DNA from: Candidatus Electrothrix sp. GW3-4 | GTDB lineage: Bacteria > Desulfobacterota > Desulfobulbia > Desulfobulbales > Desulfobulbaceae | NCBI RefSeq assembly: GCF_037902255.1 | Contig: NZ_CP147990.1 | Span: 3,270,001-3,302,000 of the forward strand | Length of the DNA: 32,000 bases | Reading direction: 5' to 3' | Part shown: in pieces, positions 1 through 17,901 of the stretch | Numbering within the stretch: the first letter of the stretch is position 1 | How the letters are laid out: every line of letters starts with the position of its first letter | Notes under the pieces: model-generated | Seen by the model: the letters and a program-made list of their open reading frames with translations, nothing else | Database searches by the model: none | What the model was told of the DNA's origin: nothing | Translations under genes and position numbers: made by a program

Positions 1-917
1 TGCGAGTAGCCAACCCCATATACGACGTTGTTTTTAAATTCCTGCTGGGCGACATGCGCATCGCCAGGCTGATCCTCTCCAAAATCCTTGATCAGGAAAT
101 CGAAACCCTGGAGTTCAAGCCCACCGAGTTCAGAAAGAAGATAGGCCTGAATCTCACCGTCTTCCGCATCGACTTCTCCGCTGTGATCCTCCAGGAGGAC
201 GGCAGCCGCAAGCTGGTTCTGATCGAAATCCAGAAGGCCAAGCTGCCCACCGATATCATGCGCTTCCGCAAATATCTCGGCGGGCAATATCAAGACCCGA
301 ACAACGTCTACCCTACAGACGACGGCGCAGGCGAGAACGCCCTGCCCATCATCTGCATTTACTTCCTCGGACATCCTCTGGAACATACCGAGAGCCCGGT
401 GGTTAAGGTGCAACGCAGCTCTGTCGACGCAGCTACTCAGGAAGAATTGGCACATAAAGAAGAATTCATCGAAAGCCTCACCCACGACAGCTACATCATC
501 CAAATCCCCCTACTCAGAGAAAAGCGGCGAAACAATCTGGAGATCCTTCTCAGCATCTTTGACCAGAGCCGGCAGGCGTCGGACAGTCGGCATTTCCTCA
601 ATCTGAACGAGGAGGATTATCCCGAAGAATTCCGCATCGTCATTCGCCGCCTGCTCAAGGCCGCAGTGGAAGAAGATGTCTGCGACACAATGGATCTGGA
701 GGACGATATCCTTGATGAACTGGAGTCTCTGGAGCGGACTATCATTAAGAAAGATCAGGTCATTAAGGAAATACTTGCTGAGAAAGATGAAGCTCTGGAA
801 GAAAACGCCAAAGCTTTGGCGAAAAAGGATGAAGCCTTAGCCAGGGCCATACAGGCCCTTATCGATTCCGGGATGACGGAAGCTGAAGCGAAAAGCCGCC
901 TTGGCTTACCCTCCTGA
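1..917 (+). CDS. PD-(D/E)XK nuclease-family transposase-like protein (Rpn/YhgA-like); the 5' end runs off the window
   Basis: The frame of ORF 54..917 stays open back to base 3 (RVANPIYDVVFKFLLGD precedes the listed Met). An N-terminal PIYDxxFK motif and a D..(n)..LIEIQKAK core are typical of this family. The C-terminus is Ala/Glu/Lys-rich and coiled-coil-like. Confidence 0.65.
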   Translation, partial: RVANPIYDVVFKFLLGDMRIARLILSKILDQEIETLEFKPTEFRKKIGLNLTVFRIDFSAVILQEDGSRKLVLIEIQKAKLPTDIMRFRKYLGGQYQDPNNVYPTDDGAGENALPIICIYFLGHPLEHTESPVVKVQRSSVDAATQEELAHKEEFIESLTHDSYIIQIPLLREKRRNNLEILLSIFDQSRQASDSRHFLNLNEEDYPEEFRIVIRRLLKAAVEEDVCDTMDLEDDILDELESLERTIIKKDQVIKEILAEKDEALEENAKALAKKDEALARAIQALIDSGMTEAEAKSRLGLPS

Positions 918-1173: not shown

Positions 1174-1360
1174 TCAGGAAGCATCAGCTGCCGGATAAAG
1201 AAGCGCAAATACCTTCTTGATCCCTTCCAGCATACCCAGCGTAGGCCGTGACACCAGCTTCTCATCAATCAGAAAGACCTGATTTCCTTGAACAGCCTTG
1301 ATTATCTGAAAGTTCGGTTCCTTACGGATCATCTCCGTGCGGAATCGGTTAAAGGAGGTT
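1174..1360 (-). pseudogene. 3'-terminal remnant of a BtuF/FecB-like periplasmic binding protein gene, paralogous to 5939..6868
   Basis: The minus-strand translation FNRFRTEMIRKEPNFQIIKAVQGNQVFLIDEKLVSRPTLGMLEGIKKVFALLYPAADAS* aligns with the C-terminus of the intact gene (AEIIRNEPGFQVIKAVQENQVFLVDEKLVSRPTLGLLEGIRRVLDILYP). No upstream coding continuation, start codon or signal peptide is present. Confidence 0.65.
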
Positions 1361-1511: not shown

Positions 1512-1886
1512 CTATTGAAACTCAGTTGGGGCAAAGACGTGAACCAGCCCATCAAGATTGGTCGGATCTGAAAGTGACTGCATGAGCTCAGGCATAATAG
1601 CACCCTGCATCACAGGGATCATGATAGCCTGCATAGGAAGTTGCTCCCCTACCGGGGCTGTGGTGTCAACAGTAGATTGGGTTGCCATCACACTTGTTCT
1701 CACGTTATTCCTCATAGTAACGACGTCCGGGCTACCAACAACGGTACTCACAGGATCCGCAATCAGGGGATCCGTTGCAGATATAGGCGGTTGAATGAAC
1801 GCTGCTGCTGCCTGATTAACAAAGGCCGTATACGAGAGCACCATCAGTAATAATCCACAATATATCATTTTTTTCATCTGTAACAT
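1512..1886 (-). CDS. Small secreted Met-rich protein, subfamily 2 (S/TDPxI N-terminus, DG...APxxF tail)
   Basis: An A-tract plus GGAGG Shine-Dalgarno precedes the ATG. The signal peptide is MLQMKKMIYCGLLLMVLSYTAFVNQAAA. The mature region carries PPISATDPLIADPVSTVV, then a Met-rich core (MQAIMIPVMQGAIMPELMQ), then the tail SDPTNLDGLVHVFAPTEFQ. It is paralogous to 13240..13614, 16277..16672 and 17035..17385. Confidence 0.8.
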   Translation of the reverse strand: MLQMKKMIYCGLLLMVLSYTAFVNQAAAAFIQPPISATDPLIADPVSTVVGSPDVVTMRNNVRTSVMATQSTVDTTAPVGEQLPMQAIMIPVMQGAIMPELMQSLSDPTNLDGLVHVFAPTEFQ

Positions 1887-1940
1887 TTTTTCCTCCTTTT
1901 TTTTATTGATTAATAAGACCCTACATATTTCAGCGCAGTA

Positions 1941-2348
1941 TCATTGAAACAACTCTGCATCTGAGGGTGCAATACGTACCGCCATTCCATCCGGGTTATT
2001 GGGGTCAGAAAAACTCATCTTCTGAACAACTTCAGCATTAAGAAGTGTCATCATCGTTCCCCCGACCGTCCATCTCGCAAAGCTTTTTATATCTTCCCGT
2101 AATGGATTAGCTGTACTAAAGATATTAGCCGATGTATCTGCCAGGACCTCCGCCCTCTTGGCAATTTTAATATCCTTCACCTCTTGCCTTGCCTTCAAGT
2201 CTTCAATTTGCGTTGGTGTTAAAATATCATGAATTGAAGTCGGCAGAACAAGCTCTGCTGCCCTTACTTTACTGGCAATTCCCAACACTCCCAAAAACGC
2301 AAGCATAAGCCCCGCCTGCCGAAGAAGTACCTTTTTCTTGCGTATCAT
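1941..2348 (-). CDS. Small secreted protein, subfamily 1 (LPxSIHD + LTxxQ-like motif, with DG...IAP tail)
   Basis: I moved the start to the internal Met (MIRKKK), which is preceded by AAAAAAGGTGG. A signal peptide is followed by AELVLPTSIHDILTPTQIEDLK. The C-terminus is SDPNNPDGMAVRIAPSDAELFQ. Confidence 0.8.
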   Translation of the reverse strand: MIRKKKVLLRQAGLMLAFLGVLGIASKVRAAELVLPTSIHDILTPTQIEDLKARQEVKDIKIAKRAEVLADTSANIFSTANPLREDIKSFARWTVGGTMMTLLNAEVVQKMSFSDPNNPDGMAVRIAPSDAELFQ

Positions 2349-2447
2349 CACGCCACCTTTTTTATAATTATTCCTCACTGTCAAAGACTCTCTAACCTTG
2401 TCCTCACCCAAAATAGAGCGAGGTCCAGAGGCATCCTTGCTAACACG

Positions 2448-2801
2448 TTAGGATCCAGCACCAGCATCAGACAACTCACGCATCTTCTCTTTTGGTTGCG
2501 TCTGTTTCCTGACAGCTTCTTGTACGGCATTAACTATAGAGCGGCGGTTCATCGTCCCCATCATAGCCGAAGACCTGACAACAGCCTGATCACTCATTGC
2601 CTGCTTTCTCATCTCACGCTGAATCTCCCGAACAGCAAGATTCTCTCTAATCTCAGCAAGCTGATCCGATGTCAAGATTTCATGAATAGAGGTTGGAAGA
2701 TTTAACCTCGTTGCTTTAGCATGATCGACAAGCCCCATACAAAAAAAGAATACGGCCACGAACAGCCCAGCTCTCAGTCCTCCTTTCTTTCTCCTTAACA
2801 T
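2448..2801 (-). CDS. Small secreted protein, subfamily 1, tail-less variant
   Basis: I moved the start to MLRRKK, which is preceded by AAGGAGGGGGA. A signal peptide is followed by TRLNLPTSIHEILTSDQLAEIR. The protein ends ...ELSDAGAGS and lacks the DG..IAPxxF tail. It lies 26 nt downstream of collagen-like gene A. Confidence 0.75.
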   Translation of the reverse strand: MLRRKKGGLRAGLFVAVFFFCMGLVDHAKATRLNLPTSIHEILTSDQLAEIRENLAVREIQREMRKQAMSDQAVVRSSAMMGTMNRRSIVNAVQEAVRKQTQPKEKMRELSDAGAGS

Positions 2802-2827: not shown

Positions 2828-4438
2828 TTATCCTCCGCAATTATACGGCTCACATATTATTTTTCCTGCCGGATTAATCCCCTTCATGAACTCTCCTTCT
2901 GGACAAATCTGGCCTTGTTGGGTCTTTGGTAATGATAAAGGCTCGGGAGAAACACCTGATGATGTACCTCCTGCATCTTCCGGCTCTTTGTTCGGGTTCT
3001 GTGAGATATTAACATTACCTGGAGCCCCCTGGTCTCCGGGGTCGCCTTTATCGCCCTTGTCTCCCTTTTCACCCTGAGGACCTTGGACGCCAGGATCACC
3101 TTTGTCACCCTTGTCCCCTTTTTCTCCCTGCGGGCCTTGCTGTCCCATAGGACCTCGTGGACCAATGGGTCCCTGTAGTCCTCGAACCCCCTGAAGACCT
3201 TGGACGCCAGGATCACCTTTATCACCCTTGTCCCCCTTCTCTCCTTGAGGACCTTGAGCTCCGGTATCACCTTTATCGCCCTTGTCTCCCTTTTCACCCT
3301 GAGGGCCTTGGACGCCAGGGTCTCCCTTATCACCCTTGTCGCCTTTTTCACCCTGAGGACCTTGGACGCCAGGATCACCTTTATCGCCCTTGTCGCCTTT
3401 TTCACCCTGAGGACCTTGGACGCCAGGATCACCTTTATCGCCCTTGTCGCCTTTTTCACCCTGAGGACCTTGGACGCCAGGATCACCTTTAGCGCCCTTG
3501 TCGCCTTTTTCACCCTGAGGACCTTGGACGCCAGGATCACCTTTATCGCCCTTGTCGCCTTTTTCACCCTGAGGACCTTGGACGCCAGGATCACCTTTAT
3601 CGCCCTTGTCGCCTTTTTCACCCTGAGGACCTTGGACGCCAGGATCACCTTTATCGCCCTTGTCGCCTTTTTCACCCTGAGGACCTTGGACGCCAGGATC
3701 ACCTTTATCGCCCTTGTCGCCTTGAGGGCCTTGCGCTCCGGTATCACCTTTACTCGCCATTAAATCCCAACATCCCAGCGGAGTTGAGTCTTCAGCAGGA
3801 GAAGAACCCGCGATTGACTGGCAGCAGGTGTTTATATAAGAGCTTCCGTCGTATTGAACCATATTGCCAGAAAGATATACCTTGCTGGAACTCCATTGCC
3901 CTTTCCAGGAAAAATCCGTTTTCTCACATCCCCCCCCAGAGCTCGTCCCCAATCCATCCGAACAAACCTCAGCATAGGCAACAATATATACGGTATCCCC
4001 TAACAACGATGAAACATTGATCTCATATCTATCTTCATCAGCATCCACTAACTCTTCATGACTCTTGCCATATTGGCCAGGTGCTGCGTTAGAGATCTTC
4101 TTCTCCCCAACGTAGAGAGCGGTTTGACTCATCACCGTTCCAGCAAAGGTAAAAAAGGAGACCGTAACGAGTTCATCAAGATAGGTAATATGGAGCTTAC
4201 CTACCTGGCGCCCCTTACTGGTATCGTTTTTTGCTGCTCCTGCATAGATTGGTGTCTCGACTTCTTCACCATCTTTAATGGTAATCTGCCATCCCCATCG
4301 TTCTGTCTCGAGGAAGTCGTCGAGCTCCTCAGGACCAAAGGCGAATGCAGCCTCACAGCTTTCTTTTTGTCCAGATTGGACCGTGACCGGTACCAACAAA
4401 AGTAATGAAAAGAGTAATGCAGCAATCCTAATTTTCAT
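2828..4438 (-). CDS. Secreted collagen-like (Gly-X-Y triple-helix repeat) protein A
   Basis: I moved the start to [22 protein letters not shown], a signal peptide. The N-terminal region is about 210 aa and contains Cys (WGWQ..PIYAGA..LYVG..APGQYG). It ends in a CBM5/12-like pattern, W-x5-Y-x2-G-x2-V-x-Y-x-G-x2-Y. About 81 uninterrupted Gly-X-Y triplets follow, with the unit [19 protein letters not shown] 62-aa tail contains [20 protein letters not shown]. Confidence 0.9.
3017..3748 (-). repeat. Coding tandem repeat with 54-bp period (18 aa, 6 Gly-X-Y); about 10 near-identical units at 3196-3748 plus diverged units at 3017-3195
   Basis: The unit gaccttggacgccaggatcacctttatcgcccttgtcgcctttttcaccctgag recurs in register at 3196, 3250, 3304, 3358, 3412, 3466, 3520, 3574, 3628 and 3682. 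Several copies are identical or differ by 1-2 nt. Confidence 0.95.
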
Positions 4439-5112
4439 TTTTGTGTCCCCTTTTCCTTTTCCCCATTCCATACCCTTTATTTACCCTTTTTCACCATTAG
4501 GTTTTTAAGGTACAGCCAAATTAAAAAAAAGTACAGATAGAATCTATAAAAAAATACAGAAGAAAAAAATATTAAGGACTTACAGCGCGACTCTTCTTTC
4601 TGACAGATAAAAAAAGTGAACAATAACCAGGCAAAAGCTGGTTGCATAAAAAATGGCTGGCTGCGAAAGACTGCTGATGAAAGCAGATATTTTTTTGGTA
4701 ATTACACTATAATACAAACCCTACATTGTAGTATTTACCGAGAAACTGTTGCATTTTTGAAACAACTCCCCCAACTGACCGCCAGGTCTTGACAAAACCA
4801 ATAGCTTAAGATTAACTTACGCACTGTTAAGAATTTCAGCATTCCCGACCCAAAAAAAACGTCGTCGCCCTGTTCAGGCAGCGTAACTGTGCAGATTATT
4901 GAGAATATGGCCGAGCACGGCATCTCGAAGGAGTTGTTGCTAAGGGCATAAAAAAAACGTTTCGCATACACGTCCGCTCTTTTTCTGAGACGGTTAAAGG
5001 CCCCTTTGGCGATATCCTTTTATTCCAGCGCTTGCGGCCCCGTCAGGGAAACAAATCCTCTACTCAGTAACCACCCATTATCCTTAAAAAAGAATCAATC
5101 AGGTAATGATAT

Positions 5113-5829
5113 ATGAAAAAAGGACTATTGATTACATTGTTATGTCTCACAGCAACTTCTGTCTGGGCAAAAGGCGGATGGATTACGGACCCAACAACAA
5201 AATGTCAGGTTTGGGATCCCGACCCTACTCCTAACCAGTCATTGACCTGGAACGGAGAGTGCAAAAATGGAAAAGCAAACGGCGAGGGCATTGCCAAGTG
5301 GCATGAGGGGAATAAAGTAGTCACGAGTATACAAGGAGTCATGAAAGATGGGCGTTGTCAGGGAGAATGCGTTGCGCTTGCCATCTTTGGAAAAAGTACG
5401 TTCAAATATGTTGGTCAGTTAGGAGATAATGACTTACATGGCAAAGGGACCCTTACCTGGCCGGACGGCAACGAGTACTCAGGGGACTGGGTTGAAGGGA
5501 AACGACACGGTACAGGTAAATTTGTCTGGAAAAATGGGACAGAATATATTGGTGACTGGAGAAATGACAAGACTAACGGTAAAGGGACATATACCTGGGT
5601 TGACCGTGACGAAAAAAAATATATTGGTGACGTGAAAGACGATAAGTTTCACGGAAACGGGGTGATGTTTTATGCAAACGGTAATAAATATTCAGGAAGC
5701 TGGGCCAACGGAAAACGGGACGGTAAAGGAACCTATACCTTTAAGGACGGAACTGTCTATAAGGGGATATGGGAAAACGGGAAGAGGATACAGCTTTTTC
5801 CCCGACTACGAGACTTCCTCTTCTGGTAG
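5113..5829 (+). CDS. Secreted MORN-repeat protein A
   Basis: The signal peptide is MKKGLLITLLCLTATSVWA. A Cys-containing N-terminal segment is followed by tandem MORN units (YxGxWxxGKxHGxGxxxWxxG). It is paralogous to 15047..15769. Confidence 0.85.
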   Translation: MKKGLLITLLCLTATSVWAKGGWITDPTTKCQVWDPDPTPNQSLTWNGECKNGKANGEGIAKWHEGNKVVTSIQGVMKDGRCQGECVALAIFGKSTFKYVGQLGDNDLHGKGTLTWPDGNEYSGDWVEGKRHGTGKFVWKNGTEYIGDWRNDKTNGKGTYTWVDRDEKKYIGDVKDDKFHGNGVMFYANGNKYSGSWANGKRDGKGTYTFKDGTVYKGIWENGKRIQLFPRLRDFLFW

Positions 5830-5938: not shown

Positions 5939-6868
5939 TCACTTCCCCTCTTCCCTCTCCTTCTTCTCAGGAGCTATCTGGACGGGGTAGAGGATATCTA
6001 AAACCCTTCTGATTCCCTCAAGCAAGCCCAAAGTTGGTCGCGACACCAGCTTCTCATCAACCAGAAAAACCTGATTTTCCTGTACCGCTTTAATAACCTG
6101 AAACCCAGGCTCATTACGAATTATCTCCGCAGTGACCTTGTTCATCCGCCCTTCCTGAGCCAGAAAAACATCAATCATTTTTGCCTTAGCCAGGATACGC
6201 TCCTTCCCGTACTCCGCAATATTACTCTTGCGTACCTGAACAGCGTCCGCAGCCACGTTAATCCCCCCTGCGGATTCCAGAACAAACATCGCCATAGACT
6301 CCGGGGCAAAGGTCTTCATCCGCTTATGGATGGATTCAAAATAGACCTTTTTCCTCTTTGCAGCAGGAATGCGTTCCACCTGTCGGTTGATCTCCACAAG
6401 CCCGGTCCCGAAGCGGGCAATCATCTGTGAAGCCTCATCCTGGTGCCCGCTCAGGACACCGAGGTTCTCCCAGTATCGGAACATTTCATCCACAGAGGTG
6501 GGTTGCAACGAAACCACTGTCACACCATTCTCCTCTAGACGTTCCACCATTTGCGGATAAGAACGGCTGAGCATGGGACGGATCAGAACAAGATCCGGCT
6601 TCAGGGCCAACAGACGTTCCGGGTCATCCCGAAAACTGAGCGTAGGCAGATCAGGCAGTTGCTTATCACTGCGCCCTACTGCCACAATTTGCTCCCCTGC
6701 CCCCATGTCGATCAGGTTACGGGTATGGGCAGCATACAGAGAAATGATCCGTTGACAGGACTTATTCAGCTGGACCACCTTGCCGTCATTATCAATGATC
6801 GGCTCTCCAAAGGCAGGGACAGCCAGCAGGCAAGAAAACAGGAGAGCAATAAGAATATGTTTCAGCAT
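5939..6868 (-). CDS. ABC transporter periplasmic substrate-binding protein (BtuF/FecB-like, corrinoid/iron-complex type)
   Basis: A signal peptide is present. The motifs RIISLYAAHTRNLIDMGAGEQIVAVG and KPDLVLI are typical of class III binding proteins. It is the last gene of the riboswitch-headed operon. Confidence 0.8.
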   Translation of the reverse strand: MLKHILIALLFSCLLAVPAFGEPIIDNDGKVVQLNKSCQRIISLYAAHTRNLIDMGAGEQIVAVGRSDKQLPDLPTLSFRDDPERLLALKPDLVLIRPMLSRSYPQMVERLEENGVTVVSLQPTSVDEMFRYWENLGVLSGHQDEASQMIARFGTGLVEINRQVERIPAAKRKKVYFESIHKRMKTFAPESMAMFVLESAGGINVAADAVQVRKSNIAEYGKERILAKAKMIDVFLAQEGRMNKVTAEIIRNEPGFQVIKAVQENQVFLVDEKLVSRPTLGLLEGIRRVLDILYPVQIAPEKKEREEGK

Positions 6869-10019: not shown

Positions 10020-10196
10020 TCAGGCCTTTGCCGAGGTTACTGAACATCTTTTTCAGGCAGGTTTTCTGACTTCCGGCTCTTTCTCCCCTGCGCCTTCCCG
10101 CCTGTTACAGACAGTGACATTATGCAGGTTCGTCCCCGGTTACAGCGGCGGGCCCGTCCCGGATTCACACCGGGTTCCCTTTTCATCCGACCATAT
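10020..10196 (-). promoter_or_regulatory. Cobalamin (B12) riboswitch aptamer
   Basis: Read on the minus strand, the core is AAAAGGGAACCCGGTGTGAATCCGGGACGGGCCCGCCGCTGTAACCGGGGACGAA. A B12-box-like GCCGGAAGTCAGAAAACCTGCC lies at 10056-10077. It sits upstream of the cbiK/ABC transporter operon. Confidence 0.85.
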
Positions 10197-10345
10197 AGTT
10201 ATATGTAACGGACACCTGAAAACAGACAATACTGTAGTCAAGGTAAGCAACGAAGTCAAGGAGGGAATGGTCATCACACCGCCCGATAAGGTCAGAAAAG
10301 GTATTTCCATCCTATCCCTCCGCACCTTATGATTTTTTTATATTC

Positions 10346-10708
10346 TCATTGATCCAGTTGAATGCAGCTGTGAGGCAATGCAGTGCTAATAATAATGGGC
10401 GTTGACTCAACTCTGGCCAGCTGCTTATATTTTTCCTCCTTGTCTTTGAAGCAGGATGACATTACAGGCGCCAATAATTGCCCTACAATGACATCAATAA
10501 GTTCACTTTGCTTCTCTGATCCACACTTCACTCCGAGTGCCTGCAGATCCTGTTGCATTCCCTCTCCCGTATCGGACCTCACAAGACGTCCTGTTTCCTC
10601 ATAGACACATTTTTCTTCTGATGCAGTTATATTCCCGGCCTGGGCATTAACAGTGATTAATAAAGTACAAAAAAACAAGAATATTGTGGGCTTTAAAAAA
10701 AAATGCAT
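10346..10708 (-). CDS. Small secreted Cys-containing hypothetical protein
   Basis: GAGGAG precedes the ATG. The signal peptide is MHFFLKPTIFLFFCTLLITVNAQA. The mature part contains four Cys. I recognise no family. Confidence 0.6.
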   Translation of the reverse strand: MHFFLKPTIFLFFCTLLITVNAQAGNITASEEKCVYEETGRLVRSDTGEGMQQDLQALGVKCGSEKQSELIDVIVGQLLAPVMSSCFKDKEEKYKQLARVESTPIIISTALPHSCIQLDQ

Positions 10709-11046: not shown

Positions 11047-11430
11047 TCAGAAAGGGCCAGGTGCTATCTTGACCGGCATTCCATCCGGGGATGCCGGATC
11101 AGCCAAGGCCTGCATCTGCACAGCCATGTGTTCGTTTCGAGTCTGGCTACTTATCGCAGCGCCTATCTTCAATCCAACCTCCTGGTTTACAAGCCCTATC
11201 AAGGGCCTATTTTGGGCTTGTTCGGTCATGACATCCCCCCGTATGCCATTCTTTATATCACTGAGCTCCTGGCTATTCTTTATTTGATCAACTTGCTCCG
11301 CACTCAGGAGGTCGTGAATTGAACCAGGAAGACTTATATCAATGGCCTTGGCGTTATCTGCTGAGCCTATGCAGGTAGCCAGTGTAATCAGTAGCGCTGC
11401 CCTTATAAGGATTACTTTTTTTACTTTCAT
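11047..11430 (-). CDS. Small secreted protein, subfamily 1 (with DG..IAP tail)
   Basis: AAAAAGGGAGG precedes the ATG. A signal peptide is followed by IDISLPGSIHDLLSAEQVDQIK. The C-terminus is ADPASPDGMPVKIAPGPF. It lies 68 nt downstream of collagen-like gene B. Confidence 0.8.
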   Translation of the reverse strand: MKVKKVILIRAALLITLATCIGSADNAKAIDISLPGSIHDLLSAEQVDQIKNSQELSDIKNGIRGDVMTEQAQNRPLIGLVNQEVGLKIGAAISSQTRNEHMAVQMQALADPASPDGMPVKIAPGPF

Positions 11431-11498: not shown

Positions 11499-12917
11499 TC
11501 AACTCTGATCGGGCGCCGCTGTCACGGGTTCACATATAAGCCTGCCAGCAGAGTCTATCCCCCTGACCCACTCTCCTTCAGGGCATAGTTGTCCCTTTGG
11601 AAGAGGGAGGGGACTCAAGCCGCCCCCTGAAGCTGGATCCAGCTCTTGTGGATTGACCTTATCTTTTCCAATGGTATCAAACCGTTCTCCTTTTGCCCCT
11701 TGGGCTCCGGGATCGCCTTTTTCACCTTGAGGCCCCTGGATGCCAGGCTCCCCCTTATCACCCTTGTCCCCTTTTTCTCCTTGAGGGCCTATAGGTCCCC
11801 TGGGGCCAACAGGGCCTATGCGGCCTATAGGTCCTATTTTTCCTTGTATCCCCTGATCACCCTTTTCTCCTTTCGGCCCCTGAGCTCCGGCATCACCTTT
11901 ATCACCCTTGTCCCCTTTTTCTCCTTGAGGACCCTGGGCTCCGCCATCACCTTTATCACCCTTGTCCCCTTTTTCTCCTTGAGGACCCTGGGCTCCGGCA
12001 TCACCTTTATCACCCTTGTCCCCTTTTTCTCCTTGAGGACCCTGGGCTCCGGCATCACCTTTATCACCCTTATCCCCTTTTTCTCCTTGAGGACCCTGGA
12101 CGCCAGCATCACCTTTATCACCCTTGTCCCCTTTTTCTCCTTGAGGACCCTGGACGCCAGCATCACCTTTATCACCCTTGTCCCCTTTTTCTCCTTGAAG
12201 ACCCTGGACGCCAGCATCACCTTTACTCACCATGAGATCCCAGCATCCCTGAGGACCAAGATCATCTTGAGGAGGAACTCCCTGCATTGATTCGCAACAG
12301 GTATTTATATATGCGCTGCCATCATGTTGTACCATATTTCCAGCGAGATAAACCTCACCAGGACCCCATACCCCTCCCCAGGAGAAATCGATTTCTTCGC
12401 ATTCGTTTCCTGATTTAACTCCCGGTTCTTCTTTTACGCATACCTCTGCATAAGCAACAAGATACAAAGTCCCACCTGCATAAGAGGAGACATCAAATTC
12501 GTAGTTATCCTCATCAGTATTGAACAGGTCCTTATGGCTATTGCCGTACTGACCAGGTGCAGCAGTTGAAACATATCGGTCCCCCACATAGAGATGCGTT
12601 GCACTGAGAACATAATCGTTAAACAGGGCATAGGAGACCGTCAGCGTATTGTTCTGGTAGGAAACATGAAGGTCACCAACATGGGTAGCCTTATCAAGGC
12701 TGTTCCCCCCGGCACCTGCATAGATCGGCGTGTCATAATTATCGTTTTCTTTAAGGGTAAGCTGCCATCCCCATTTCTTTGTATCAAGAATCGAACTGAG
12801 TTCATCAGCGCCATAAGCGTAGGCACCTTCGCAGGATCCTGCCTCTCGGGAGTGGGCATTTACCGACGACAATAGCAAAAAAGCTAATAGCAGCAATCGG
12901 ATATTATTCTTTTTCAT
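11499..12917 (-). CDS. Secreted collagen-like (Gly-X-Y) protein B, paralog of 2828..4438
   Basis: I moved the start to MKKNNIRLLLLAFLLLSSVNAHS, which is preceded by GGGAGG. The architecture matches protein A, and the Cys positions and the WGWQ/PIYAGAG/LYVG/APGQYG motifs are conserved. The same CBM5/12-like pattern is present. About 60 Gly-X-Y triplets follow, with the unit [16 protein letters not shown](V/A)Q. The tail contains CPEGEWVRGIDSAGRLICEP. Confidence 0.9.
   Translation of the reverse strand: MKKNNIRLLLLAFLLLSSVNAHSREAGSCEGAYAYGADELSSILDTKKWGWQLTLKENDNYDTPIYAGAGGNSLDKATHVGDLHVSYQNNTLTVSYALFNDYVLSATHLYVGDRYVSTAAPGQYGNSHKDLFNTDEDNYEFDVSSYAGGTLYLVAYAEVCVKEEPGVKSGNECEEIDFSWGGVWGPGEVYLAGNMVQHDGSAYINTCCESMQGVPPQDDLGPQGCWDLMVSKGDAGVQGLQGEKGDKGDKGDAGVQGPQGEKGDKGDKGDAGVQGPQGEKGDKGDKGDAGAQGPQGEKGDKGDKGDAGAQGPQGEKGDKGDKGDGGAQGPQGEKGDKGDKGDAGAQGPKGEKGDQGIQGKIGPIGRIGPVGPRGPIGPQGEKGDKGDKGEPGIQGPQGEKGDPGAQGAKGERFDTIGKDKVNPQELDPASGGGLSPLPLPKGQLCPEGEWVRGIDSAGRLICEPVTAAPDQS
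11682..12221 (-). repeat. Coding 54-bp tandem repeat of collagen-like gene B (near-identical units at 11876-12221)
   Basis: The unit gaccctgggctccggcatcacctttatcacccttgtcccctttttctccttgag recurs in register at 11876, 11930, 11984, 12038, 12092 and 12146. Confidence 0.95.
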
Positions 12918-13239
12918 GATAATCCTCCCTGGTAATGGCGAAAGTAGCAACCCGGCTGTCTCTCGCATTGAGACCCGTGGCTTTCCGGCACCACCTCGCG
13001 GCGGTTGTGGTTTTATGTAATCTTTCTGAGTCGAACTCCTCCAATCGGCTCTGACCAGGAAAGACTGACTGTTTTTTAGAAACAGATGTTACAAATACTC
13101 TTTACAAATATTCAGCTATAATGACTCATTATATCATTGGCTATCCTCAAGGCGGGGCAAGAGGAATCACCGCATCCCTTCCGCAATGACTCCTCTCCGT
13201 ATAAATGTCGGTTTTAAACACGCCTTGGTGAAACCTGCC

Positions 13240-13614
13240 TTATTGTGTAAAAACCGGTGGGGCAAGCAAGGCAACCATGCCATCCGGATTATTCCGGTCA
13301 GAAAGCGTAGCCATCATCTGATCCTGAACCTGGGACTTGATCTGATCCTGCATGATCGTCGTCATCATGGGTTCCAGCACAGGTCGCATGGGTTTTGCGG
13401 CGCTCTGGGTATCAATAACCTGATCTCTCATACTATTCTTCATATCAACGACCTGGCCATTGCCCACTACTTGACTCACTGCATCCTGAATCAACGGGTC
13501 ACTTGAGGACACAGGAATACCGATATCTATCGCCAGCACCTGATTCGCCGGAATTGCAATAAGGGAAAACAACAGGACAATTTTAACAGCCGTTATTTTT
13601 TTGATACGTAACAT
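13240..13614 (-). CDS. Small secreted Met-rich protein, subfamily 2
   Basis: I moved the start to MLRIKK, which is preceded by AAGGAGG. A signal peptide is followed by IDIGIPVSSSDPLIQDAVSQVV. The Met-rich core is PMRPVLEPMMTTIMQDQIKSQVQDQMMATL, and the tail is SDRNNPDGMVALLAPPVFTQ. Confidence 0.8.
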   Translation of the reverse strand: MLRIKKITAVKIVLLFSLIAIPANQVLAIDIGIPVSSSDPLIQDAVSQVVGNGQVVDMKNSMRDQVIDTQSAAKPMRPVLEPMMTTIMQDQIKSQVQDQMMATLSDRNNPDGMVALLAPPVFTQ

Positions 13615-13736: not shown

Positions 13737-14093
13737 TCACTCCTGGTTGTCCGGATCAGATGCCGCACCCATTTGCGCCGTTCCATTGCCAATCTGAAAA
13801 CGTCCACTGACTTCTTTATCAACCACACCTCCAAGGACACCGCTCATAACCATCTTTGCGGCTGGCTTTTTGGCGACCTGCTCAGTTATCACCTGCCCCC
13901 TCATGCCGTTCCGTATCGCCAGGAGAGCAGGATCGGCCTTGACCGTTTCAATCTGCTCGGAGGTCAATACATCATGAATGGAAGATGGGAGAGTAATCTC
14001 CAATGCCCAGGCCTTACCTGTCAAACCTATGCATACAGACAATGCGCTCAACAACGCTGTCTTCGCAAATATATTCTTTTTTACCTGCAACAT
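13737..14093 (-). CDS. Small secreted protein, subfamily 1, tail-less variant
   Basis: AAAAAAAGGAGG precedes the ATG. A signal peptide is followed by LEITLPSSIHDVLTSEQIETVK. The protein ends ...AASDPDNQE and lacks the DG..IAPxxF tail. Confidence 0.75.
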   Translation of the reverse strand: MLQVKKNIFAKTALLSALSVCIGLTGKAWALEITLPSSIHDVLTSEQIETVKADPALLAIRNGMRGQVITEQVAKKPAAKMVMSGVLGGVVDKEVSGRFQIGNGTAQMGAASDPDNQE

Positions 14094-15046: not shown

Positions 15047-15769
15047 ATGCGAATAATACTTGTAATATTAACACTTTTATCCCTTCCAGCACCGTCCACC
15101 TATGCACAAGGAGAGTGGGTTATTGACCAAGAGACTCAATGTCAGGTGTGGGATTCTGACCCAAAGCGGAACCAGTCTATAACGTGGTCTGGGAAATGCC
15201 AAAACGGCAAAGCTCATGGTGAGGGCGTTGCGAGCTGGCACGAGGGAAACAAAGTGGTTGCCAGCATAAAAGGAAACATGAAAGAAGGTCGTTGCCAAAG
15301 TGAAGATTGCCTTGTGACAATTGCAGCAGGAAACAAAGAAGTAAAATATATCGGCCAACTCAAGGATAACGACCTACATGGTAAGGGAACATTAACCTGG
15401 CCCGATGGTAACGAATATTCAGGTGACTGGCTTAAGGGAAAGAGACATGGCAAGGGCAAGTTTACCTGGAAGAACGGTACGGAATACAATGGCGATTGGC
15501 AAGATGATAAAAGTACCGGTAAAGGGACATTTATTTGGGTTGACCGTGATGAAAAAAAATATATTGGTGAAGTGAAGGACGGTAATTTTCACGGAAATGG
15601 CGTCATGTTATACACAAACGGCGATAAATATTCAGGAAGCTGGGCTGACGGCAAGCGACACGGCAAGGGAAACTACACCTTCAAAGATGGTACTACCTAC
15701 AAAGGAATATGGGAGAACGACAAGAGGATACAGCTGTTTCCTCGGTTAAGAGATTTTCTGTTTTTGTGA
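15047..15769 (+). CDS. Secreted MORN-repeat protein B, paralog of 5113..5829
   Basis: GAGGAGAG precedes the ATG. The signal peptide is MRIILVILTLLSLPAPSTYA. The repeat layout matches protein A, and the C-terminal tail RIQLFPRLRDFLF is identical. Confidence 0.85.
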   Translation: MRIILVILTLLSLPAPSTYAQGEWVIDQETQCQVWDSDPKRNQSITWSGKCQNGKAHGEGVASWHEGNKVVASIKGNMKEGRCQSEDCLVTIAAGNKEVKYIGQLKDNDLHGKGTLTWPDGNEYSGDWLKGKRHGKGKFTWKNGTEYNGDWQDDKSTGKGTFIWVDRDEKKYIGEVKDGNFHGNGVMLYTNGDKYSGSWADGKRHGKGNYTFKDGTTYKGIWENDKRIQLFPRLRDFLFL

Positions 15770-16276: not shown

Positions 16277-16672
16277 TCAATCAAATGTCGGTGCTATCAT
16301 ATTAGGTATTCCTTCTGGACTCGCAGCATCCTGCATTGCGGCCATTTGCGTTTTTCTCGTCTTATCTCGCGTCTCCTGCCGTACCCTTGTGCTGACCACT
16401 TCACTAATTGCGTCTCCCATAGGACGAAGCAAAGGAAGTCGCTTGGCCTGCTCTTCTTTTATCCTATCCCTTGTTTGACGCATTATCGCCTTCACATCAA
16501 TACCATTCATATCAACATCAGTCTTAACGCTGTCCACAACCCCCTGAATTTCCGGATCATCAGATGGTAGAGGAATATTGATATTCTGCGCCTGTGCAGC
16601 ATTAACACCTGCAACAGCAGCCAAGGAAATAGCCAAGGCTAGATTCATTGATATTTTTTTTAAGTGCAGCAT
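16277..16672 (-). CDS. Small secreted protein, subfamily 2 (diverged, charged core)
   Basis: I moved the start to MLHLKK, which is preceded by AAAAAAAAAGGAG. A signal peptide is followed by NINIPLPSDDPEIQGVVDSVK. The tail is DAASPEGIPNMIAPTFD. The upstream part of the listed ORF (16673-16807) is covered by repeat E4. Confidence 0.75.
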   Translation of the reverse strand: MLHLKKISMNLALAISLAAVAGVNAAQAQNINIPLPSDDPEIQGVVDSVKTDVDMNGIDVKAIMRQTRDRIKEEQAKRLPLLRPMGDAISEVVSTRVRQETRDKTRKTQMAAMQDAASPEGIPNMIAPTFD

Positions 16673-16920: not shown

Positions 16921-16964
16921 TCAAAAACATTTACACGGGAGACCAACAGGACCTCCCGTGTAAA
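16921..16964 (-). terminator. Intrinsic terminator after gene 17035..17385
   Basis: A perfect 12-bp stem (TTTACACGGGAG / CTCCCGTGTAAA, arms at 16930-16941 and 16953-16964) is followed on the minus strand by TGTTTTTGA. Confidence 0.75.
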
Positions 16965-17034
16965 CTTTCGCAACAGATTAAATAAAGAAAAAAGTGCAAG
17001 CTTCACACCTTTTTCTTACAGGATCCCCTACAGC

Positions 17035-17385
17035 CTAGAAAGGAGGAGGAGCGATAGATCCCGGAATACCACCATTGGGGTTTTTCAGAGCGCCCATTTG
17101 GGTATTCATGATTTTATTCTTCATCATCGGCTGCATCTTTGCCATAACCTGATCGATCAGCGGCATATTAGCAGACATGTCAGTGATGACATTAGCTCGG
17201 GTGGCATTCATCATGTCTTTTACCATCGCGTCAGTCCTGACAGTAGATACTACCTGCTGAATCTCCGAATCACCGGTGGGAATGGGGATTTCCACAGCCT
17301 GAACATTGCTCACTGTGTACGCAGAAGCAGCCAAAGTAAGCATCAGCGCGACTTTCACTGTTCCTGATTTCATTTTTTGCAGCAT
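17035..17385 (-). CDS. Small secreted Met-rich protein, subfamily 2
   Basis: AAGGAGGAAG precedes the ATG. A signal peptide is followed by VEIPIPTGDSEIQQVVSTVR. The core is very Met-rich (MVKDMMNATRANVITDMSANMPLIDQVMAKMQPMMKNKIMNTQM). The tail is NPNGGIPGSIAPPPF. Confidence 0.8.
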   Translation of the reverse strand: MLQKMKSGTVKVALMLTLAASAYTVSNVQAVEIPIPTGDSEIQQVVSTVRTDAMVKDMMNATRANVITDMSANMPLIDQVMAKMQPMMKNKIMNTQMGALKNPNGGIPGSIAPPPF

Positions 17386-17901
17386 TTTCTTCCTCCTTGT
17401 CTTTTTCTAGAATAGAAAGTTACTCAATAACCTTCCCTCTATAATAAAAGATTATTGAGGGCTTGTAAAATTTTTTTACCGAATCTGCTTTTTATCTCAC
17501 CCACCTTCATTTTATCCCATCAGACAACGAGATAAAAAGCGGTGTCTTTGAAAGAGCAGCCAGAAATACCCATGCAATCCTCGCAAAAAGGAGAATCTTC
17601 TCCTGCCTACCACTTTGTAAAGTCCTCACCTGCGCTCGACAACACGACCGAAATCATCTGGTCCGGGAAGCTGTTGAAAAGCCCCTGGGAGGAATGCTAG
17701 TAGTACTTGCATTCATTAATTCTGAATCTTGTCAAAAGAGGTACGGAATGTCGGTTATACAGTTCGCCCCTCGCACTGCACTGTTTCCCTTAGCAAGCAA
17801 TAGTTTTTTTTGCACAACCACTACCCCCTCACAAAACAGCTTGATATAAAATATATAATTACCAACAACCTACCTGCTGCAACGGGATACATTATTTTTT
17901 T

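Follow-up and report, generated by a model that had tools for sequence, protein, structure and literature searches.

We investigated a 32,000-nucleotide window of the genome of Candidatus Electrothrix sp. GW3-4 (contig NZ_CP147990.1, positions 3,270,001 to 3,302,000), in which a first-pass annotation had described an eight-member family of small secreted proteins divided into two subfamilies. All eight open reading frames (ORFs) were found where that annotation had placed them, all on the (-) strand; each is referred to below by its first coordinate. Subfamily 1 comprises 1941..2348 (135 amino acids (aa), with the long tail GMAVRIAPSDAELFQ), 11047..11430 (127 aa, with a tail), and two genes of the tail-less type, 2448..2801 (117 aa) and 13737..14093 (118 aa). 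Subfamily 2 comprises 1512..1886 (124 aa, tail DGLVHVFAPTEFQ), 13240..13614 (124 aa, 9.4% Met, tail NPDGMVALLAPPVFTQ), and the first and second genes of a pair, 17035..17385 (116 aa, 12.8% Met in the mature protein, tail NPNGGIPGSIAPPPF with a terminal Phe) and 16277..16672 (131 aa, tail SPEGIPNMIAPTFD). The start codons chosen for all eight genes have an A-rich tract and an AGGAGG-type ribosome-binding site 5–9 nucleotides (nt) upstream. The NCBI starts are the same for P0001 (135 aa), P0077 (127 aa), and P0003 (131 aa), and that of the 1512 gene lies three codons further downstream (P0002, 121 aa). The 1941 product is 100% identical to WGN25_14530 of Ca. Electrothrix sp. GW3-4, and the 1512 product matches WGN25_14525. 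With the signal peptides removed, pairwise BLASTP comparison of the mature parts gave E-values down to 1e-18 and connected all eight proteins through intermediates. A family hidden Markov model (HMM) searched against all six-frame ORFs of the window retrieved exactly these eight, with E-values of 1e-40 to 1e-49, and no ninth member. The eight genes form a genuine paralog family with homology far above chance, and both subfamily motifs proposed in the annotation were borne out.

Each protein carries the features of a Sec-type leader, as had been proposed: an n-region containing Lys, then a hydrophobic core, and an AxA site for cleavage, all predicted from sequence features, which would place the family in the general class of proteins exported by Sec and cleaved by signal peptidase I (SPase I). 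The xxKK start ascribed to all members does not hold for 17035, which begins MLQKMK. The mature chains, 86–105 aa in length, are Cys-free, contain few aromatic residues and 0–2 His, and are acidic to neutral in charge; no transmembrane segment was found in the mature part, and no lipobox. Met makes up 4–13% of the mature proteins, whereas proteins encoded nearby contain 2.4%; the shares of Gln and Pro are likewise elevated. An alignment of 60 sequences revealed conserved termini and a variable centre, the most conserved columns being A-x-A, a Pro six residues in from the mature N-terminus, a single Arg midway along the chain, and the tail D-P-x-N-P-x-G...(I/F)-A-P-x-F; only one Met column, the QM ahead of the tail, is conserved family-wide. 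A shared tail had been reported for six of the eight proteins and was indeed present in these, with the qualification that the 17035 tail is without the DP..P part (KNPNGGIPGSIAPPPF) and that the 1941 tail is longer than described (IAPSDAELFQ). Two other sorting classes were considered and rejected. Lipoproteins were excluded by the Cys-free mature parts, the Cys residues in the hydrophobic region of three members occurring in LATC, LSVC, and FFFC contexts followed by AxA. Sortase, exosortase, or rhombosortase signals were excluded by the window proteins ending 0–2 residues past the motif Phe, with no hydrophobic helix after it.

AlphaFold2 (AF2) modelling with the family alignment yielded no compact fold but an elongated helix ending in coil on both sides, both for member 11047 (predicted local distance difference test score, pLDDT, 74; predicted template modelling score, pTM, 0.30) and for member 16277 (pLDDT 63, pTM 0.24). 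Hydrophobicity periodicity, averaged over the alignment and independent of AF2, was 170–180° over the first ~10 mature residues, which is β-like and agrees with the alternating strand assigned to the mature N-terminus in the first-pass annotation. The last core segment gave 90–95°, which fits an amphipathic helix, and the C-terminal tail about 80°, which is not β-like. With low confidence, we predict that the body is an elongated amphipathic α-helical rod held between non-helical, conserved end peptides. The order would be a strand-like N-terminal peptide with a β-type h-x-h-P motif right after the cleavage site, the helical body, and a Pro-rich C-terminal peptide. Two earlier suggestions did not survive this analysis: the core, described as low-complexity, is instead predicted at low confidence to be helical, and the C-terminus, described as strand-like, is without β-type alternation.

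To each of the eight window paralogs correspond its own orthologs in other Electrothrix species, each with its own version of the tail. The most widely sampled orthogroup, 16277 (32 cluster representatives), has the tail NPEGMPxFIAPKFD; the others are NPNGG(I/F)PGxIAPPPF in orthogroup 17035 (orthologs in nine Electrothrix loci), GLAVRFAPSDxELF in 1941 (12 cluster representatives), DGLVHVFAPxEFQ in 1512 (11 cluster representatives), and SPDGMPxKIAPGPF in 11047. Orthogroup 2448 is consistently tail-less (its orthologs P0033, P0048, P0049, and L004 912-1307 are also tail-less), and so is orthogroup 13737, for which the sole ortholog found, P0040, is tail-less as well. Because they belong to conserved tail-less orthogroups, the two tail-less members of the window are not truncated pseudogenes. 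The median ratio of nonsynonymous to synonymous substitution rates (dN/dS) was 0.15 in the 17035 group and 0.19 in the 16277 group, indicating that the family is under purifying selection. The 17035 group shows ~85% median identity between species, with nearly all Met positions fixed, and the 16277 group only ~63%, compared with 86–97% for the flanking housekeeping proteins. Judged by these comparisons, the eight orthogroups are old and specialised, and the presence of eight stable, differentiated types suggests a multi-component function rather than redundancy.

To examine the prevalence of the family, we searched 1.84 billion representative proteins exhaustively with HMMER, using a profile of the mature region. 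Only 46 matches were obtained, one of them spurious (P0056, 2990 aa, an RTX/VCBS-type repeat adhesin that matched cumulatively through ten partial profile matches). All matches carrying a name are from Electrothrix or from 'Desulfobulbus sp. US1/US2', which we take to be metagenome-assembled genomes (MAGs) of cable bacteria, and among one genome per species (185,579 species) the 16277 orthogroup was found at six loci, all in Electrothrix. As far as named data go, marine cable bacteria (Candidatus Electrothrix) are the only carriers of the family. The best Pfam and NCBIfam matches (E 0.004–0.5) lay far under the cut-offs and differed between paralogs, and the 60 members scanned had no Pfam family in common. 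PHROGs yielded no match, and neither a profile search of all PDB sequences nor Foldseek against the PDB found one. No description of the family was found in the cable-bacteria literature searched for collagen, proteome, methionine-rich, and locus tags. The supposition of the first-pass annotation that no named family covers the whole protein was thus confirmed, and the terminal motifs proved to be kept in homologs of other genomes. The protein family is previously undescribed and is new at the protein-family level.

The pair 17035/16277, the most conserved part of the family, has its own expression signals. A sigma-70-type promoter of 17035 lies at 17441..17469 on the (-) strand (TTTACA-17-TATTAT, with an A-tract upstream); across nine genomes, the A-tract and the -35 hexamer are invariant and the -10 hexamer is nearly so. 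Two tandem intrinsic terminators with stems of 15 and 16 pairs follow the gene at 16929..17017 (-), and the stronger, 16-pair hairpin shows compensatory stem changes across the orthologous loci of nine genomes. Promoter and terminators together bear what reads as the signature of a strongly expressed monocistronic gene. Elsewhere in the family, a promoter-like site was noted at 14219-14191, upstream of 13737. In seven further Electrothrix loci with enough flank, the pair has glycogen phosphorylase on one side and the cbiK operon on the other, and two more Electrothrix loci show it with the phosphorylase side only. The operon encodes a periplasmic CbiK, FecCD, an ATP-binding cassette (ABC) ATPase, and a binding protein, and probably takes up or salvages B12, a corrinoid, or a metal chelate. 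Upstream of it in the window is a cobalamin riboswitch (10039-10234, (-), 129 bits), which is kept in six other Electrothrix loci. A functional tie between the pair and this operon was considered and is weakened by three observations: the operon carries a riboswitch of its own in all genomes, the pair occupies a different neighbourhood in strain YB6, and Desulfolithobacter, which we take to be the closest non-cable relative, has the CbiK/ABC operon without the small genes. The same observations mark the pair as an autonomous two-gene unit.

Four of the eight members (2448, 1941, 1512, and 11047) are operonic with collagen-like genes, both here and in other genomes. The gene for secreted collagen-like protein A (2828..4471, (-); Pfam Collagen 1.6e-43, ~250 aa of Gly-X-Y repeats) is followed downstream by the trio 2448, 1941, and 1512, with gaps of 26, 99, and 54 nt. 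The order of collagen and then three small genes is also found in US1-type MAGs, and the closed genome CP130629 has collagen and then the first small gene, at the edge of the locus. Member 11047 lies 68 nt downstream of the gene for secreted collagen-like protein B (11499..12968, (-); Gly-X-Y repeats, Pfam Collagen, E 1.3e-29). It is followed by orf10346 (10346..10708, (-)), which encodes a small secreted Cys-containing protein (120 aa, four Cys) that is unrelated to the family and has no family match. The order collagen B, 11047-like, orf10346-like recurs in GCA_024449855.1; the orf10346-type gene is kept downstream of the 11047-type gene (L017 1273-1650). The leader of collagen-like gene B contains a GEMM-I riboswitch aptamer of the c-di-GMP-I clan (12942..13021, (-)), which scored 52.8 bits with RF01051 (gathering score 35). 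The 'UAU' variant model RF03168 scored higher, at 59.3 bits, yet under its own gathering score of 65.9, so the ligand class of the aptamer is uncertain. A ribosome-binding site and an ATG at about 12917 come directly after the aptamer, and the probable true start of collagen-like B is this Met18. A 'GGC' variant aptamer stands in front of a related gene in E. aarhusensis (L015 16977-17057); no riboswitch was found upstream of collagen-like gene A.

The N-terminal domains of collagen-like A and B, ~200 aa in length and without a known family, are 53% identical, and a CBM_5_12 match in A (3.5e-4) lies below the cut-off. Also common to both proteins are long repeats, a segment with weak CBM5/12 likeness, and the motif CPEGE...GxxICE at the C-terminus. 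At L008 18989-19798, in a public genome, the collagen repeats have been mis-called in the wrong frame.

Along (-) transcription, the order of the locus is 17035; 16277; a MORN protein (+); 13737; 13240; the riboswitch and collagen-like B; 11047; orf10346; the cobalamin riboswitch with periplasmic CbiK, FecCD, ATPase, and binding protein; a second MORN protein (+); collagen-like A; 2448; 1941; and 1512. The two secreted MORN-repeat proteins (5113-5829 and 15047-15769, both (+)) are paralogs, 72% identical, and both end FPRLRDFLF(W/L). There is one MORN copy per collagen module, and a copy also lies beside the ABC operon in other Electrothrix genomes. In the closed genome CP130629, a group II intron with a reverse transcriptase is located between the MORN and collagen-like genes (L008 15838-17876). 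A remnant of a periplasmic binding-protein gene at 1192-1353 (-), covering residues 242-295 with 73% nucleotide identity to 5985-6129, indicates that the module of MORN, collagen A, and trio was inserted by an old segmental duplication; E. aestuarii is without this module at the corresponding site. At 54-917 (+), the window encodes a 287-aa protein with a Glu/Lys-rich C-terminus and no family match, which is 95% identical at the corresponding position in E. aestuarii.

A different set of secreted proteins was encountered in a Candidatus Electronema MAG (GCA_011391865.1, L018 5990-9903), where five tandem genes lie directly upstream of a CbiK gene, in a CbiK context that differs from the Electrothrix one. 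Their products contain 9–17% Met and 12–18% Gln, the longer ones being also rich in Gly and Pro, and have no Pfam match. Comparison of the family with this cluster by hhalign gave a probability of 87.6% with signal peptides and 5.9% for the mature parts alone; the high value was therefore driven by the signal peptides, and homology with the cluster is unproven. The two groups do resemble each other in composition. A 43-codon fragment between glycogen phosphorylase and the pair (L008 9046-9174, also in L009 and L010) matches the profile of the Electronema cluster (E 4.6e-6, low bias) and is probably a pseudogene remnant of an Electronema-type gene. Presence of this remnant beside the pair in one Electrothrix lineage suggests that genes for Met/Gln-rich secreted proteins adjoined the pair in the past.

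Taken together, the taxonomic restriction, the eight orthogroups, their selection, the conserved ends, the predicted helical core, the Cys-free and Met-rich composition, the signs of expression, the collagen operons, and the riboswitch lead us to infer, tentatively and short of calling it probable, that the proteins are abundant helical subunits, acting as linkers or adaptors, in an extracytoplasmic assembly specific to Electrothrix, into which they would dock by their terminal peptides. Signs of high expression are the AGGAGG ribosome-binding sites, the invariant A-tract with a near-consensus promoter, and the conserved terminator, as read from the DNA. Such an assembly would be located in the periplasm or at the cell surface, with the helical body acting as a spacer or forming bundles through a Met/Ile-lined face, and the two terminal peptides acting as docking motifs. 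These might bind the neighbouring subunit head-to-tail, with the tail-less paralogs as caps, which is speculation, or their partners might be other proteins, for example the co-transcribed collagen-like trimers, bound at their globular domains. Collagen B and member 11047 would be switched by the cyclic-dinucleotide riboswitch; such control is typical of envelope, adhesion, and matrix genes.

Two known systems offer partial parallels to linker or adaptor subunits. Braun's lipoprotein Lpp and similar tethers are likewise short exported helical rods whose two ends attach to different envelope layers, and they are abundant, with a strong promoter and terminator. The family differs in that its ends are Pro-rich peptides and that it lacks a lipobox Cys, a C-terminal Lys, and a heptad-perfect trimeric coiled coil. 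In the Bacillus exosporium, ExsFA/BxpB are small proteins beside the collagen-like filament protein BclA, comparable in that the family could anchor or organise such filaments. However, they are spore proteins without signal peptides and unrelated in sequence, and the collagen link of the family is operonic only, for four of the eight members.

Several observations weigh against linker or adaptor subunits. No collagen gene adjoins the pair in at least nine Electrothrix genomes, and none was found in its retrieved flanks (up to 10 kb) in E. aestuarii and YB6, which makes any link to collagen partial at best. One of the roles offered in the first-pass annotation, docking to the collagen head, is consequently not tenable as a general role, and the expectation that family members always neighbour collagen-like genes holds for four of the eight types, in operons, and fails for the two most conserved. 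The AF2 models are weak, which leaves the helical rod tentative. Finally, small, fast-evolving exported proteins would equally fit chaperone, metal-buffering, or signalling roles, which we considered in turn.

An unlikely alternative, though the one that fares best, is that the proteins work in the periplasm as holdases or chaperones, analogous in function to Skp or Spy. Unfolded clients, such as the collagen-like chains or fibre proteins, would be held by flexible, Met-lined helices while they are exported and assembled. The proteins are small, exported, Cys-free, Met-rich, and predicted to be helical, some of their genes lie directly downstream of those for large secreted collagen-like proteins, and subfamily 1 has a single LTxxQ-like motif (SIHDILTPTQIEDLK). 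Spy/CpxP/ZraP (PF07813/PF13801) are likewise small, all-helical, exported envelope proteins, but the LTXXQ family has two such motifs in a helical hairpin, and our family has no His or metal site. Membership in it, suggested by SIHDILTPTQ, was rejected: similarity to Spy is nil (hhalign probability 3% against E. coli Spy), and none of the 60 members has a Pfam match to LTXXQ or OmpH. Skp/OmpH (PF03938) is likewise small, periplasmic, and exported by Sec; its long α-helices have short β-segments at either end, and it oligomerises through its ends. The family, by comparison, has no sequence or profile match to Skp, no predicted β-body or helical hairpin, an acidic to neutral rather than strongly basic charge, and eight specialised paralogs. 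Eight diverged orthogroups with conserved terminal peptides exceed the needs of a generic chaperone, and the pair is independent of collagen genes.

We consider it improbable that the family serves as a periplasmic soft-metal buffer, for Cu(I) and possibly Ni, or as a sacrificial Met-based oxidant scavenger, in the manner of SilE/PcoE or Met-rich antioxidant proteins. The raised Met content, the almost invariant Met positions of the 17035 orthogroup, and the location of the pair next to the periplasmic CbiK and metal-chelate ABC operon in most genomes would fit such a role, as would O2 reduction at the cell envelope and Ni handling in cable bacteria (PMC8238962). SilE and PcoE are similarly small, exported, and Met-rich, and the low-confidence structure predictions (pLDDT 63–74) allow a SilE-like disorder-to-helix behaviour. 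Against this, Cys is absent, neither HxxM/MxxH nor any other positional metal motif is common to the family, and Met positions are not conserved family-wide apart from the single QM column. With 0–2 His per mature protein, a Met/His metal sponge of the SilE/PcoE type was rejected. Met content falls to about 4% in some members, the cbiK operon stands apart as a unit under its cobalamin riboswitch, the pair is placed elsewhere in YB6, and metal binding leaves the conserved Pro-rich terminal motifs unexplained.

A matrix or sheath component of the periplasmic conductive fibres, with amphipathic Met-rich helices coating or organising nickel-dithiolene nanoribbons, appears distinctly unlikely. Its attractions are that the family is restricted to cable bacteria, exported, rich in thioether sulfur, and represented by many paralogs with signs of high expression. 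In one description of the fibres, a matrix of protein strands surrounds Ni/S nanoribbons (10.1101/2025.10.10.681601). Placement of the Met/Gln-rich proteins directly upstream of CbiK in the Electronema MAG could be counted in the same direction, although in a different CbiK context. Against it, Electronema has the same fibres and yielded no demonstrable homolog. The family is fast-evolving and contains few aromatic residues, the window has no link to Ni or molybdopterin-type genes, and the cyclic-dinucleotide riboswitch and the linkage to adhesin-type collagen-like genes favour surface or matrix functions. Several small helical paralogs coating a self-assembled cofactor aggregate are known from the chlorosome envelope (CsmA and its paralogs), a parallel that applies to fibre coating only; these are unrelated in sequence and lie on the cytoplasmic side. 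A more elaborate version seems very doubtful to us: the family, perhaps together with the Electronema Met/Gln-rich proteins, would form the matrix or sheath, its Met-lined helices wrapping and aligning nickel-bis(dithiolene) nanoribbons, its ends linking head-to-tail, and its tail-less members serving as terminators.

Secreted signalling peptides, bacteriocin-like toxins, or other diffusible effectors are highly improbable: the proteins are small, Sec-exported, multi-paralog, lineage-specific, and relatively fast-evolving, but no processing, immunity, or export genes were seen nearby, dN/dS is well below 1, the eight orthogroups are stable between species rather than polymorphic in presence and absence, and neither Cys nor double-Gly leader features are present. 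Outer-membrane proteins (OMPs), or substrates with an OMP-type C-terminal β-signal as the first-pass annotation had offered, can hardly be credited and were rejected, since only two of the six window tails end in the conserved Phe, which otherwise lies close to the C-terminus, the tail is without alternating hydrophobicity (about 80° against the 160–180° of a β-strand), the body, of at most 105 aa, is too short for a barrel and predicted to be helical, and two orthogroups lack the tail entirely.

In cable bacteria, electrons travel over centimetres along periplasmic fibres, and the envelope has further layers, among them a surface layer, cartwheel junctions, and a sheath. The family is exported and lineage-specific, has strong expression signals and eight paralog types, and is partly co-transcribed with collagen-like genes under cyclic-dinucleotide control, which makes its members concrete candidates for the units from which these electricity-conducting bacteria build their unusual cell envelope. 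The newness applies to the protein family, and for its function a structural role is the leading hypothesis, held with less than even confidence. Even if unrelated to conduction, these genes add a new protein family and give the genus Electrothrix a marker locus.

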